Source: Candidatus Tayloriibacteriota bacterium (lineage in GTDB: Bacteria > Patescibacteriota > Minisyncoccia > Phycocordibacterales > PALSA-1337). Taken from it: a DNA stretch of 64,000 nt. The notes under the pieces are model-generated. The model was given only the letters and a program-made list of their open reading frames with translations, had not been told where the DNA came from and searched no databases. The stretch lies in contig JBAXUB010000001.1 in assembly GCA_037129895.1 (NCBI GenBank), positions 18,947-82,946 on the forward strand, read 5' to 3'. The position numbers were made by a program, and so were the translations under genes. This document shows positions 16,170 through 64,000 of this stretch, in pieces. The first letter of the stretch is position 1, and each line of letters opens with the position of its first letter.

Positions 16170-17138
16170 TTGATGATACTTTTTAGCAGAACTATGAAAA
16201 CTCAAAATGACGGCTCCGACCTGTTACTATACAGTCGGGCAATCCACGAACATCCCCTACTGACAGAGCAAGAGGTAGTCGAGCTCTGCAAACAGAGGAC
16301 TGCCGGAAGCCTGGAGGCATACGACAAACTAATCCTGCATAACTTGAGATTAGTGATATTCATAGCGAAAGACTTCTCAAATAGAGGACTGGAGTTGTCC
16401 GACGCGATCCAAGAAGGAATGATGGGGCTCATGATCGCTATTCAGCGATTCGACCCATCTATAGGTCTATCGCTCAGCGGTTATGCGGGCTTGTGCATAA
16501 GAAACAAGATGCATCGGGCACTTTTCAATCAAAGCCAGGGTATTCGCATTCCTGTTCACTTTCGTGAGACTTTTCACAAAATCAAACGAATCCAGGACCA
16601 ACTACTCACTGTATTAGATAGGGAGCCAACATTCGAAGAGATCGGCCACGAACTTAACAAGAGTGCCGCTTACGTTTCGAATGTTCTTGACTCTATGTTG
16701 AGGACACGTTCCACATCGATCGACGCCGAAATAGAACTCGATGGTGACACTTCTCTAGACGGCAGACACCAATCAATCGCTGACCAACAAGTCCTCGACC
16801 CGTCAATGGCACTAGATGCAAAAGAGACCTTGCATATACTGAAATCACGCCTTGAACAATTGCCTGCTGATATCACAAACCTCGACAACCTCAAAGAGAA
16901 ACACCGAGAAGTGTTCCGGATGCGATACAATTTTGATCACCAGTATACACCTCTTGTCAGTCTCGTAGATATAGCGAAAGAGTTTGACATGAGCAAACAA
17001 AGAATCCAACAGAGTCTCTGTTTCACCTGGCGCAAATTGAACAAGACCGGTGTACGAGGTTCTGACCGTTGGGTCGTCACCACGCTCGACCGGATCGATG
17101 AGCTAGAGTCGATCGTCGCTGCTATTGAAAACAATTGA
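16170..17138 (+). CDS. RNA polymerase sigma factor, sigma-70 family (regions 2, 3 and 4 present; no region 1.1)
   Basis: Region 2 DAIQEGMMGLMIAIQRFDP and a region 4 HTH (LVSLVDIAKEFDMSKQRIQQ). Confidence 0.85.
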   Translation: MMILFSRTMKTQNDGSDLLLYSRAIHEHPLLTEQEVVELCKQRTAGSLEAYDKLILHNLRLVIFIAKDFSNRGLELSDAIQEGMMGLMIAIQRFDPSIGLSLSGYAGLCIRNKMHRALFNQSQGIRIPVHFRETFHKIKRIQDQLLTVLDREPTFEEIGHELNKSAAYVSNVLDSMLRTRSTSIDAEIELDGDTSLDGRHQSIADQQVLDPSMALDAKETLHILKSRLEQLPADITNLDNLKEKHREVFRMRYNFDHQYTPLVSLVDIAKEFDMSKQRIQQSLCFTWRKLNKTGVRGSDRWVVTTLDRIDELESIVAAIENN

Positions 17139-17167: not shown

Positions 17168-17200
17168 AACCAGACCAATTAAGCGGTCTGGTTTTTTATT
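17168..17200 (+). terminator. Intrinsic terminator of the sigma-factor gene
   Basis: aaCCAGACCaattaagcGGTCTGGttttttattt. Confidence 0.7.
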
Positions 17201-17212
17201 TAATGATGCAAA

Positions 17213-17275
17213 CTATTTGCAGACCTGAGGAGAAACCGGCTTTTTCAAAACAGCATCGATCTTTCGAGCAATCTT
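17213..17275 (-). repeat. Authentic glyA 3' end; direct-repeat partner of 16035..16097
   Basis: See the paired repeat feature. Confidence 0.8.
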
Positions 17276-18430
17276 TACAAAATCTTTCTCTTTCCTACCA
17301 CGAGTAGTCTCTGCGGCGGTGCCAAGTCGTATGCCTGACGGGTCAGCTGGTGGACGTGTGTCGAAAGGAATGGCGTTCTTGTTGACGATGATACCTGCTT
17401 GTTCGAGTCTAGTACTAGCCTCTTTACCAGTAACTCCGCCAGCACCATTTTCATTCACATGACCGTCATGCCAAGTATCTACCAAAACTAGATGACTATC
17501 CGTGCCACCAGAGATGACCCTCCAACCAAACTTTCTCAGGTGTTCCGCCAAAACTGCAGCATTCTTCACAACTTGTGCAGCGTATTTCTTGAATTTTGGA
17601 CTAGCTGCTTCTTTGAGTGCCACTGCAACAGCAGCAATCTGATTTATATGTGGTCCACCCTGTAGTCCAGGAAAAACTGCCTTGTCTATCTTCTTGTCCA
17701 ATTCCCTATCATCGCGTCTCACGAATATGAGAGCTGCGCGTGGGCCACGGAGAGTTTTGTGTGTAGTCGTCGTAACAATATCAGCATATGGAAAAGGTGC
17801 AGGATATGCACCACCAGCTACCAATCCAGCGATATGAGACATATCAACCATGAGTAAAGCCTGAGCCGCGTCCGCAACTTCCCTCATCTTGACCCAATCA
17901 ATAATACGAGGATAGGCCGTATAGCCAGCAACTATGATCGCCGGCTTTTCTGCCACAGCCTTTTCTCGAAGCTGATCGTAATTCAATACTTCAGTTGTCT
18001 TATCTACACCATATGGCACCTGAGTCCAAAACTTTCCTGTAGCAGAAACTTTGTGCCCATGCGTAAGGTGTCCTCCTTGATCGAGTGACATCCCCATGAT
18101 CTTACCGCCTTGTGGGACTAACGCGGTATAGACTGCCAGATTCGCTGGTGAACCCGAGAGAGCTTGCACGTTTACATGCCACTTATCATGATCGAGCCCG
18201 AATAATTCTAACGCCCTTTCCATACACAGACTCTCTATCTTATCTACTATCTCATTACCCCCATAATATCTCTTTCCCGGATAACCCTCCGCATATTTAT
18301 TGGTAAGTTCTGAGCCAAGTGCCTCTAACACATCATTCGAAACATAATTCTCCGAAGCTATCAGGTTGACGACTTTTTTCTGTCTATTCTTTTCTGACAA
18401 TATTAATTTTTTTATTTGTTTATCTTTCAT
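17213..18430 (-). CDS. glyA: Serine hydroxymethyltransferase (start at internal Met MKDKQIKK)
   Basis: LIASENYVS...YAEGYPGKRYYGG signature; PLP-lysine region present. Confidence 0.9.
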   Translation of the reverse strand: MKDKQIKKLILSEKNRQKKVVNLIASENYVSNDVLEALGSELTNKYAEGYPGKRYYGGNEIVDKIESLCMERALELFGLDHDKWHVNVQALSGSPANLAVYTALVPQGGKIMGMSLDQGGHLTHGHKVSATGKFWTQVPYGVDKTTEVLNYDQLREKAVAEKPAIIVAGYTAYPRIIDWVKMREVADAAQALLMVDMSHIAGLVAGGAYPAPFPYADIVTTTTHKTLRGPRAALIFVRRDDRELDKKIDKAVFPGLQGGPHINQIAAVAVALKEAASPKFKKYAAQVVKNAAVLAEHLRKFGWRVISGGTDSHLVLVDTWHDGHVNENGAGGVTGKEASTRLEQAGIIVNKNAIPFDTRPPADPSGIRLGTAAETTRGRKEKDFVKIARKIDAVLKKPVSPQVCK

Positions 18431-18751
18431 ATGTATATCGTAACATAACATACCGCCTACAAAAAATGGTCCGCTACACCCAGTGTGTAACGGACCACCA
18501 ACCACCCATACAAAGGGAAGAAATCAACGACACACGACGCGACTTTAGTGACAAAATAGAATTTGTCCAATCCTTAGCCACTCATACGGTGATATGTCGT
18601 TTTTGTTTGACCATTGAAGGTCTGCGAGCCAAATGGCCCAGTACGGGACGCGAACTCATAGTTCGAATCTCTGATGAAAAGATTACTCCTCGTCCGCAAT
18701 TAATGCAAGCTAGTTATACACACGTTATCCACAGGCTATTCCGTGACTCGT

Positions 18752-21491: not shown

Positions 21492-21520
21492 AATTACTGA
21501 ACGTATATTAATAATCGGCT

Positions 21521-21632
21521 TCGTGGGAAGTTTCCCCTCACGACTCTGCGGAAGGAAGGAAATGACACATTTTCTGATAAATAACCTCCCCATCATCGCA
21601 GTCCTCGAGTCGTTCGAGAAAACTTCCCACGA
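21521..21632 (+). promoter_or_regulatory. Structured leader candidate upstream of the DHFR gene
   Basis: 13-bp inverted repeat TCGTGGGAAGTTT/AAACTTCCCACGA encloses nested CGACTC/GAGTCG and CTGCG/CGCAG helices. Confidence 0.35.
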
Positions 21633-21664
21633 AACCGAAATAATCACAACAAATAATCACCACC

Positions 21665-22165: not shown

Positions 22166-22225
22166 AAGGCACCGGATTATGGCAGTGACAGGTAAAGCAT
22201 TTGAAACTGCAGCGGTTTTTGTATT

Positions 22226-22253
22226 AAAAAAATCGCACCCAATATGAGTGCGA
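22226..22253 (-). terminator. Intrinsic terminator after the 22277..22783 gene
   Basis: Minus strand reads TCGCAC-loop-GTGCGA followed by TTTTTTT. Confidence 0.6.
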
Positions 22254-22276
22254 CAACACGAACATAAAAGAACAAT

Positions 22277-22783
22277 TCAAAATGTAGAGAGTTTCCCTCT
22301 ATTGGACTCTATCGAACGTGACAGACTACTAACACATTCGACAAGCTCGTCCAACTTTCTGAAATTGAAATGCCGTACCAAGTCCGGCCTGTCCAGATGA
22401 GCAAACTTGATCGACTCTAGAAACGAGATCGTCCGATTGGCTTGTGCATGGTCACCTAGAGTGAGTCCAACCAGGAGAGGCTTGCGAGCTTTCGCACGTG
22501 CCTCGACTTCTTGCACACACCGAGGGGTTGAGCACACTGACAACCAGATCATGAGATCACAAGTCTTCACAGGATCACTGATCCGAGGAACTTCGACAGG
22601 TAGATCATCCGTGATCTTCAAGACCGGCTCCACCGCATATACGTGGAATCCGGGCAGCTGTCTCAGTTTTTCCAAGAAATACAATACGTCCGTGAACAAA
22701 AAACCATCCGGAATACCCGGGGCCAACGCCAAGGGAAAAGTTACATATGTTTTCATAATCAGCTCTGAAACAAAGCCTACCAT
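22277..22783 (-). CDS. Hypothetical protein of higher GC than its neighbours
   Basis: 168-aa ORF. No motif recognised. Local GC is near 50% against about 40% around it. Confidence 0.5.
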   Translation of the reverse strand: MVGFVSELIMKTYVTFPLALAPGIPDGFLFTDVLYFLEKLRQLPGFHVYAVEPVLKITDDLPVEVPRISDPVKTCDLMIWLSVCSTPRCVQEVEARAKARKPLLVGLTLGDHAQANRTISFLESIKFAHLDRPDLVRHFNFRKLDELVECVSSLSRSIESNRGKLSTF

Positions 22784-22819
22784 TTACAATCCATTTCGCA
22801 AGTCACTGCCCTGCTGCAT

Positions 22820-22865
22820 AGGTCAGACCTATACAAACATGTAGAGGTCAGACCTCTACATGTTT
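22820..22865. promoter_or_regulatory. Two copies of the palindrome AGGTCAGACCT. The second lies in a 31-bp perfect palindrome that overlaps the rplK stop.
   Basis: AGGTCAGACCT at 22820 and 22845. aaacatgtagaggtc-a-gacctctacatgttt spans 22835..22865. Confidence 0.45.
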
Positions 22866-23286
22866 ACTTTACATCAACTCCCATCGATCGTGCTGTTCCA
22901 GCGATGATCTTTGCGGCCTGATCTATTGTATTTGCATTGAGATCTCCCATCTTCTTTTCGGCGATCTCTCTAGCCTGAGCTTTAGTGATAGTTCCGATCT
23001 TCTTTGTATTTGGCTTACCTGAACCCTTTTCTTGCTTCAAGGCTTTCAGAATCAAACTAGATGCTGGAGGAGATTTGAGTTTGAAATCGTAAGTACGGTC
23101 TTCGTAAACTGTGATAACAACAGGGATCATATCACCCATCATACCTTTCGTAGCATCATTGAACTTCTTTGTGAAGTCACCTATATTGACGCCAGCCTGA
23201 CCTAGTGTAGGGCCCAATGGAGGGGCAGGAGTAGCTTTCCCTGCTGGAGCGATAACCTTGACTTTCTTTATGATTTTCTTTGCCAT
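22864..23286 (-). CDS. rplK: 50S ribosomal protein L11
   Basis: [14 protein letters not shown] and the overall L11 sequence. Confidence 0.95.
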
Positions 23287-24128: not shown

Positions 24129-24165
24129 ATAACATGTGTATAATATACCCAATATTCACCAAAGT

Positions 24166-24190
24166 CAAGGCCGTGAATAACACGGCCTTG
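24166..24190. repeat. Perfect 10-bp inverted repeat CAAGGCCGTG-aataa-CACGGCCTTG
   Basis: Seen directly. No U-tract on either side. Confidence 0.4.
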
Positions 24191-63861: not shown

Positions 63862-64000
63862 AAAAAAACCATGTCAGGACACAATAAATTTTCGAAAATC
63901 AAACACTTGAAGGCCAAGAACGACGCACAAAAGAGCAAAAACTTCGGGAAACTGGTACGTCTGCTAACAGTAGAGTCAAAGAAAGCTCACGGAAATCTAA
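63862..64000 (+). CDS. yebC: YebC/PmpR-family transcriptional regulator (5' partial; runs off the window)
   Basis: MSGHNKFSKIKHLKAKNDAQKSKNFGKL resembles [28 protein letters not shown]. Confidence 0.75.

Follow-up and report, generated by a model that had tools for sequence, protein, structure and literature searches.

Genomic Context of the rplK Locus

The window, i.e., the whole 64-kb stretch of DNA analyzed here, is part of a Candidatus Taylorbacteria (Parcubacteria, CPR) MAG contig. On its minus strand, secE, nusG and rplK are followed, in this order, by two palindromes, a hypothetical gene and a canonical intrinsic terminator (22254-22225), with rplK being the final gene of the secE-nusG-rplK operon (Table 1). 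The locus is embedded in a thymidylate/folate cluster comprising tmk, the dCMP deaminase gene, thyA, dcd, folA and folD. For comparison, a set of 80 rplK loci from other species was used. The encoded L11 protein ends in ...GVDVK* at the same position as in the 80 relatives. Neither the window nor any of the related rplK loci (n = 80) gave a tblastn match to rplA, rplJ or rplL. A preprint notes, with reference to Brown et al. (2015), that a group of Parcubacteria has no L1. The absence of rplA from the vicinity of rplK is consistent with, though not proof of, the organism belonging to this L1-lacking group.

Table 1. Coordinates of the features located at the rplK 3' end and around the downstream gene.
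Feature	Position in window	Strand	Description
Core motif AGGTCAGACCT, copy 1	22845-22855	either	inside hairpin 1; exact match
Core motif AGGTCAGACCT, copy 2	22820-22830	either	inside hairpin 2; exact match
Hairpin 1	22835-22865	-	perfect 31-bp palindrome, AAACATGTAGAGGTC-A-GACCTCTACATGTTT; 15-bp arms + 1 central base
Hairpin 2	22815-22835	-	21-nt palindrome; 10-bp arms with 9 Watson-Crick pairs + one G.U
rplK (ribosomal protein L11, 140 aa)	22864..23286	-	Pfam Ribosomal_L11_N + Ribosomal_L11, E 1e-26 to 1e-28
Downstream gene (159 aa)	22277..22756	-	ORF call of 168 aa from ATG 22783; NCBI annotation is the 159-aa form
Predicted -35, TTGCGA	22796..22801	-	downstream gene's own promoter; 13 nt past hairpin 2
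Predicted extended -10, TGG TAGGCT	22774..22782	-	overlapped by ATG 22783
Canonical intrinsic terminator	22225..22254	-	10-bp stem + T7; dG -13.2; T-tail score 4.4

Several other structured sequences were observed in the window. An element of 124 nt, whose 32-nt terminal inverted repeats are 84% complementary, occupies positions 21513-21640 in the dcd-folA spacer, with AATAATC on each side, and has the appearance of a MITE-type insertion. It is missing from L001, a relative from a Logan assembly described below, where the dcd-folA spacer is 46 nt long compared to 173 nt in the window, and no further copy of the end of the element was found within the window. A hairpin with perfect 10-bp arms and no U-tract (CAAGGCCGTG-AATAA-CACGGCCTTG, 24166-24190) follows a SIMPL/DUF541 gene; it overlaps a good sigma-70-like secE promoter (TTGACT-17-TATTAT, 24168..24140) and is partly degraded in L001. 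At 17168-17193, between the convergent genes 16170-17138 (plus strand) and 17213-18505 (minus strand), a 9-10 bp stem flanked by an A-run and a T-run forms a typical bidirectional terminator. Since dnaN and dnaA, followed by rnpA and yidC, are situated just outside the window (L092 15330-17919, about 5-7 kb past window position 64000), the chromosomal origin region is probably near its right end.

Two Related Palindromes Downstream of rplK

An earlier note on this DNA had described two identical 11-bp palindromes 25 bp apart, the second of which forms the core of a 31-bp palindrome with 15/15 symmetry that overlaps the rplK stop codon. All of these observations were confirmed: the two AGGTCAGACCT copies are exact, their start-to-start spacing is 25 nt, and the copy closer to rplK (copy 1) is the center of a perfect 15+1+15 palindrome, which takes in the final two bases of the stop codon TAA (22866..22864, minus strand). 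This is the longest perfect palindrome of the 64-kb window, while in shuffled sequence the arms did not exceed 9-10 bp. Hairpin 2 is a paralogous copy lying 25 nt downstream of hairpin 1, with 86% identity between the 21-nt units. The duplication is too short to be scored as a tandem array (21-nt units at a 25-nt offset) by TRF.

When one mismatch was allowed, AGGTCAGACCT was scored six times in the window compared to 0.92 expected, a number reached in none of 100 dinucleotide shuffles, although four of the six matches are two sites counted on both strands. The remaining two 1-mismatch matches are both located within long ORFs. The motif search that the earlier note had proposed at the genome scale was carried out on the window plus ∼19 kb of flanking contig (∼83 kb in total), 17 kb of L001 and the 80 rplK loci. 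No further copy of AGGTCAGACCT, and specifically no further non-coding one, was found in these sequences.

Variants with C or G at the central position, AGGTC(C/G)GACCT, were observed at four sites in other Paceibacteria (L017:4931, L051:337, L057:1937-1958 and L058:5139), in each case 8-14 nt downstream of a stop codon. The four sites follow an NDT-like gene, precede folD, precede secE-nusG and follow dut. The L057 site is a canonical terminator with a 12-bp stem, and the L051 site has an interrupted T-rich tail resembling that of the window. A metagenome scan for the palindrome beside an rplK-like 3' end returned a single match, which was rejected as a chance occurrence at an unrelated locus behind a YajQ-like gene. 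In a viral scan, TAGAGGTCWGACCTCTA was found four times, at or below chance by a rough estimate, and an exact-protein look-up of L11 retrieved the same contig family only.

The Downstream Gene Has Its Own Conserved Predicted Promoter

In 17 of the 18 loci, the orthologous gene is closely preceded by the pattern TTGnnn-N13-15-TGnTAnnnT, compared to a mean of 0.17 and a maximum of 2 in shuffles, and the 28-nt promoter match from TTGCGA through TAGGCT is identical in the window and L001. A search of metagenomes for the conserved 25-nt promoter word found no match. As ATG 22783 falls within the conserved -10 element, the gene probably starts at ATG 22756, in which case the leader ahead of the start codon would be about 10 nt long. 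The earlier note had placed a higher-GC gene at 22277..22783; the GC content is indeed elevated (0.485 compared to 0.425 for the window), and it is the upstream boundary that most likely has to be moved.

The predicted promoter also changes the assignment of the palindromes. The earlier note had put them both at the 3' end of rplK and in the 5' region of the downstream gene. The former placement agrees with our analysis. The latter does not: because the conserved predicted promoter lies downstream of the palindromes, they would fall outside the downstream gene's own transcript and occupy the rplK 3' UTR. Two further arrangements were considered and dropped. A promoter within the palindrome itself was rejected, as there is no -10 at the proper spacing, and so was stop-codon read-through, as the 29-codon in-frame extension crosses the promoter.

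Iterative HMM searches grouped the window gene with the ORFs occupying the same slot, between rplK and the convergent folA and on the same strand as rplK, into one fast-evolving family with 18 slot members in 18 genomes. The slot-gene loci besides the window include L004, L010, L011, L013-L015, L017, L018, L025, L026, L028, L042, L044, L047, L053 and L054; one more family ORF was found outside the slot, in L010. The members are only 9-23% identical to the window protein, although the flanking L11 proteins are 80-96% identical. The window protein on its own has no Pfam match. PF05014 matches three of the 18 family members (best E 2.5e-5), and PDB entries of Rcl/DNPH1 are matched over the catalytic-Glu motif with E values of 0.03-0.05, which points to a weak similarity of the family to nucleoside 2-deoxyribosyltransferase/DNPH1. 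A profile search of a database of 5.8 billion proteins retrieved only five family members, none of them annotated.

The higher GC content of this gene, together with its absence from some relatives such as L005, might suggest that it had been inserted, and that the palindromes represent one end, or one copy, of an associated mobile or repeated element (REP/MITE-like, an IS200/IS605-type hairpin, or attC-like). A weak match, both inverted and direct, between CTCTACATGTTT (22854-22865) and AAAATGTAGAG (22279-22289, the 3' end of the gene) could be read in the same way. We regard this as very improbable: the flank match is missing from L001, no transposase or integrase is encoded nearby, and the gene occupies an orthologous position, with a conserved promoter, in 18 genomes rather than being a recent insertion. 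Moreover, the motif is confined to a single locus in about 83 kb, whereas REP or MITE elements occur as dispersed copies. An attC site or IS200-type end was rejected on the same grounds of a missing integrase or transposase and of the positional orthology. A CRISPR repeat was also discarded, since there are only two units and no spacers, as was a dif/Xer site, for which a perfect palindrome is atypical and which is not accompanied by a skew switch.

The Palindromes as Predicted RNA Hairpins

In the predicted fold of the minus-strand RNA, the palindromes form a pair of adjoining hairpins with stems of 13 and 9 bp, and the 131-nt region has a z score of -3.7. Hairpin 1 has a stem of 13-14 bp with a CUG loop; its 5' side starts inside the stop codon of rplK, and GUAU follows it. 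With dG estimates of -16.7 to -18.5 and of -17 to -20 kcal/mol, hairpin 1 is among the strongest 3'-end hairpins of the window; the dG of hairpin 2 is -9.2. A hairpin of -10 kcal/mol or lower lies within 70 nt of the stop codon at 11 of 69 gene ends in the window, compared to 2% of intragenic controls, and several of these 11 have poor U-tracts.

Differences among the three known copies of the motif (copies 1 and 2 of the window and the copy in L001) keep or improve the pairing. Relative to copy 1 and L001, copy 2 carries a change of a paired G-C to U-A, and in copy 1 a U.G pair is replaced by U-A. As a covariation signal over only three copies (two pairs changed on both sides, 88% of cells paired), this is not significant, with 52 of 500 shuffles reaching as high a score. 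In a search of Rfam 15 at gathering scores, tRNAs alone passed in the window and no family was assigned to the palindromes; a permissive local E-value scan gave at best 22.7 bits, compared to a gathering score of 70.

Hairpin 1 is a stable, GC-containing stem-loop just past the gene that closes a transcription unit. At neither hairpin is the stem followed immediately by an uninterrupted U-rich tract of about 6-8 nt, and a terminator consensus scan did not report the site of the palindromes. The T-tail score of hairpin 1 is 0.9 for the full stem and up to 2.6 for truncated stems, while it is 0.01 for hairpin 2, which has no U-tract, and 0.38 for the L001 copy, compared to 4-5 for the terminators of relatives and for the window's own downstream terminator. 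The window hairpins are therefore unlikely to bring about efficient intrinsic termination, which in L001 is essentially excluded. These scores bear out the view of the earlier note that the structure is not a canonical intrinsic terminator. Its statement that no U-tract follows applies to the full-length stem; the inner 8-13 bp stem of hairpin 1 is, in contrast, followed by an interrupted T-rich tail, (A)TGTTTGTAT. From the T-tail scores, hairpin 1 would be a weak terminator at best. A terminating ribosome would have to melt hairpin 1, as the stop codon lies within its 5' arm.

The terminator at 22225-22254 presumably ends both the downstream gene and any transcript reading through from rplK. 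Its stem and T-run are kept in L001, where a single compensatory change affects the base.

Relationship to the rplK Terminators of Other Species

A strong hairpin followed by a T-run is present within 126 nt of the rplK stop codon in 38 of the 80 loci, or in 43 if cases with T = 5 are counted. Among the other loci with a downstream gene on the same strand, at least 12 of 16 carry a strong terminator in this slot. These terminators typically have a symmetric arrangement of A-run, stem and T-run, such as AAACAAAAACCGAC...GTCGGTTTTTGTTT in L070.

Hairpin 1 keeps the architecture of the relatives, including a GC-rich core, while its A- and T-runs are symmetrically interrupted and absorbed into the 13-15 bp stem. 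Its outer arms AAACA...TGTTT match the arms in L070 and mirror the A-run and T-run of the relatives; matches were also found between its tail CATGTTTGTA and the T-tract CATTTTTGTA of L052 and L025, as well as between TGTAGAGGTCT of the window and TGTAGAGGCCT of the L004 terminator. Continuity with the orthologous terminators is thus apparent in position (38-43 of 80 loci) and in matches of 10-11 nt, the latter being short-match evidence of homology only. This suggests that hairpin 1 descended from an rplK terminator whose A- and T-runs became interrupted symmetrically.

Compared to intrinsic terminators of the A-tract/GC-stem/T-tract type, the structure has the same location, immediately behind the operon's final gene and ahead of the next promoter, and the same GC-rich stem within a palindrome extended by an A-rich 5' flank and a T-rich 3' flank. 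It differs in that its U-tract (AUGUUUGUAU) is interrupted and for the most part taken up by pairing within the stem, and hairpin 2 and the L001 version lack any U-tract. There is also a shift in position: the terminator stems of relatives start 20-70 nt past the rplK stop codon, whereas the window stem starts inside it.

The Hairpin Core Is Conserved in the Only Relative Sharing the Motif

L001 is the only relative that shares the motif. Its single copy reads TAG-AGGTCTGACCTCT-GCAT; the stop codon lies within the 5' arm, and there is no U-tract. The L001 and window proteins are 99% (L11) and 92% (downstream gene) identical, whereas the DNA identity is about 84% by blastn and 62% at four-fold degenerate sites (298/479). 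Against this background, the core and flanks of copy 1, TAGAGGTCTGACCTCT, are identical at 16 of 16 positions. The probability of such a match is about 5e-4 at an identity of 0.62 and about 0.02 if the rplK-local rate (0.79) is used. The rest of the spacer up to the start codon is identical at 67 of 70 positions, indels aside.

The spacers differ by indels of 8, 22 and 7 nt, which alter the number of hairpins and the distance between the motif and the -35 element, the window spacer being longer by 31-37 nt. The L001 version is single, shorter and imperfect, and its 3' flank is orthologous to that of hairpin 2. The distance from the motif center to the -35 element is 19 nt in L001 compared to 23 nt in the window. 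Since it is identical at all 16 positions compared to 62% at four-fold sites, the hairpin core appears to be constrained, while its phasing relative to the promoter does not. With two states to compare, the change may have been either a gain in the window or a loss in L001.

The single, shorter and imperfect L001 version and the 31-37 extra nucleotides of the window would also fit a functionless mutational by-product. In such a case, the rplK terminator would have decayed, with read-through into the next gene being tolerated, and a 25-nt slippage duplication plus a template-switch "perfecting" of a quasi-palindrome would have generated the symmetry. A symmetry of 15/15 is the immediate yield of a templated event, the U-tract is degenerate, and another lineage-specific palindromic insertion not present in L001, the 124-nt element at 21513-21640, lies 1.2 kb away. 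The conserved core argues against a purely neutral relic, as 16 of 16 positions were retained compared to 62% at neutral sites. Other non-coding sequences changed far more between L001 and the window: the spacer between the 159-aa ORF and folA is just 57% identical outside the terminator stem and T-run, and four of 20 nt differ in the SIMPL hairpin. That the differences among the three motif copies keep or improve the pairing also stands against this explanation, which we consider rather unlikely.

Binding Site or Hairpin

The 16/16 conservation concerns sequence, beyond what pairing demands, and a sequence-specific binding site therefore fits as well. The earlier note had put forward a tandem operator for a dimeric regulator, i.e., two AGGTC-N-GACCT dyads in DNA that would activate or repress the downstream promoter, with site centers about 58 and 83 bp upstream of the predicted transcript start. 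The part of this proposal that holds is the perfect dyad symmetry, present in two copies just upstream of a conserved predicted promoter. The unchanged 16-nt core in a relative with 62% four-fold-site identity indicates constraint at the sequence level, and it makes an operator function possible. The four recurrences of C/G-centered AGGTC-N-GACCT in other Paceibacteria, some beside genes of dNTP or folate metabolism (an NDT-like gene, dut or folD), may be counted in its favor, but all of them lie 8-14 nt past a stop codon, which suits 3' hairpins.

Further sites and a regulator are what the proposal lacks. No non-coding copy with up to one mismatch was found in the 64-kb window, in the ∼19 kb of flank or at the promoters of the other genes of the thyA/dcd/folA cluster, and the neighboring genes encode L11, NusG, the NDT-like protein and DHFR, none of them a regulator. 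The number of sites is one in L001 compared to two in the window, and the 25-bp spacing of the centers does not correspond to whole helical turns. Finally, the 4-nt shift between the motif and the -35 element means that a bound protein would be rotated by about 135 degrees. With no other sites in the ∼83 kb of contig, in L001 or in the 80 loci, no adjacent regulator gene and variable phasing, we consider a DNA operator unlikely.

A similar arrangement of two dyad sites upstream of a promoter in a thymidylate/folate cluster is seen for NrdR boxes of dNTP-metabolism clusters. The cluster in the window has no other such sites, the phasing is not conserved, and the motif, as far as we are aware, is unlike the NrdR-box consensus. 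Both an NrdR box and mimicry of the L11 rRNA site were dropped, as we take neither to resemble the window motif in sequence.

A variant of the binding-site idea is that the conserved AGGTCUGACCU, as a hairpin or a DNA duplex, is a candidate sequence-specific site at the rplK end for a novel protein, which would couple the fate of the L11 mRNA or the expression of the nucleoside-salvage gene to a new regulator. We consider this reading, set in an L1-less Parcubacteria lineage that would have lost the classical L1-mediated control of the L11 operon, quite improbable. If true, the overlap with the stop codon would tie hairpin formation to rplK translation.

A Model for the Origin and Function of the Palindromes

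The explanation that we favor, and to which we give about an even chance of being correct, is that the palindromes are RNA 3' hairpins derived from an rplK terminator and duplicated at a 25-nt offset, which serve as a weak terminator and/or a protector of the 3' end. They would act as RNA, in the form of tandem 3' stem-loops on the rplK transcript, and would represent a lineage-specific derivative of the terminator closing secE-nusG-rplK in related Paceibacteria/Taylorbacteria. Hairpin 1, with its tail AUGUUUGUAU, may still terminate a fraction of transcripts, possibly aided by NusA or NusG. Both hairpins may block 3'-to-5' exonucleases, and this block would stabilize the rplK mRNA once termination has occurred, or once read-through transcripts ending at 22225-22254 have been processed. 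An RNA stability hairpin had been the other option offered by the earlier note. This option comes close to the reading favored here, in which weak termination may also play a part.

Stabilizing 3' stem-loops are known from polycistronic mRNAs, e.g., the REP hairpins between malE and malF of Escherichia coli. The likeness lies in stable, U-less hairpins that separate a highly expressed gene from the gene downstream of it, and by analogy a block to exonucleases would be expected here too. The difference is that REP elements form multi-copy families, whereas the window motif occurs at a single locus.

As for the origin of the structure, templated mutation, in the form of slippage or intra-strand template switching in a quasi-palindrome, is the simplest explanation for both the perfect symmetry and the 25-nt duplication, and we prefer it to stepwise selection. 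Ripley-type quasi-palindrome correction, or template-switch mutation, is a known mechanism. The contrast between the imperfect short palindrome of L001 and the longer perfect one of the window with its 25-nt offset duplicate would fit it, although such correction accounts for origin and not for function.

The feature is real and mildly instructive, but of an ordinary kind, and the palindromes open no new question. By-products of the analysis are maybe more useful for annotation, namely the corrected start codon, the conserved extended -10 promoter and the fast-evolving NDT/DNPH1-like gene family in the thymidylate/folate cluster. If the terminator reading is right, the locus would provide a small worked example of the decay and remodeling of an intrinsic terminator in a reduced CPR genome, in which the A- and U-tracts were absorbed into the stem, the hairpin was duplicated and the stem shifted onto the stop codon, while the core is still constrained. 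Since U-poor 3' hairpins seem to be common in Patescibacteria, such an example would be of use when terminators are predicted and operons called in this group.
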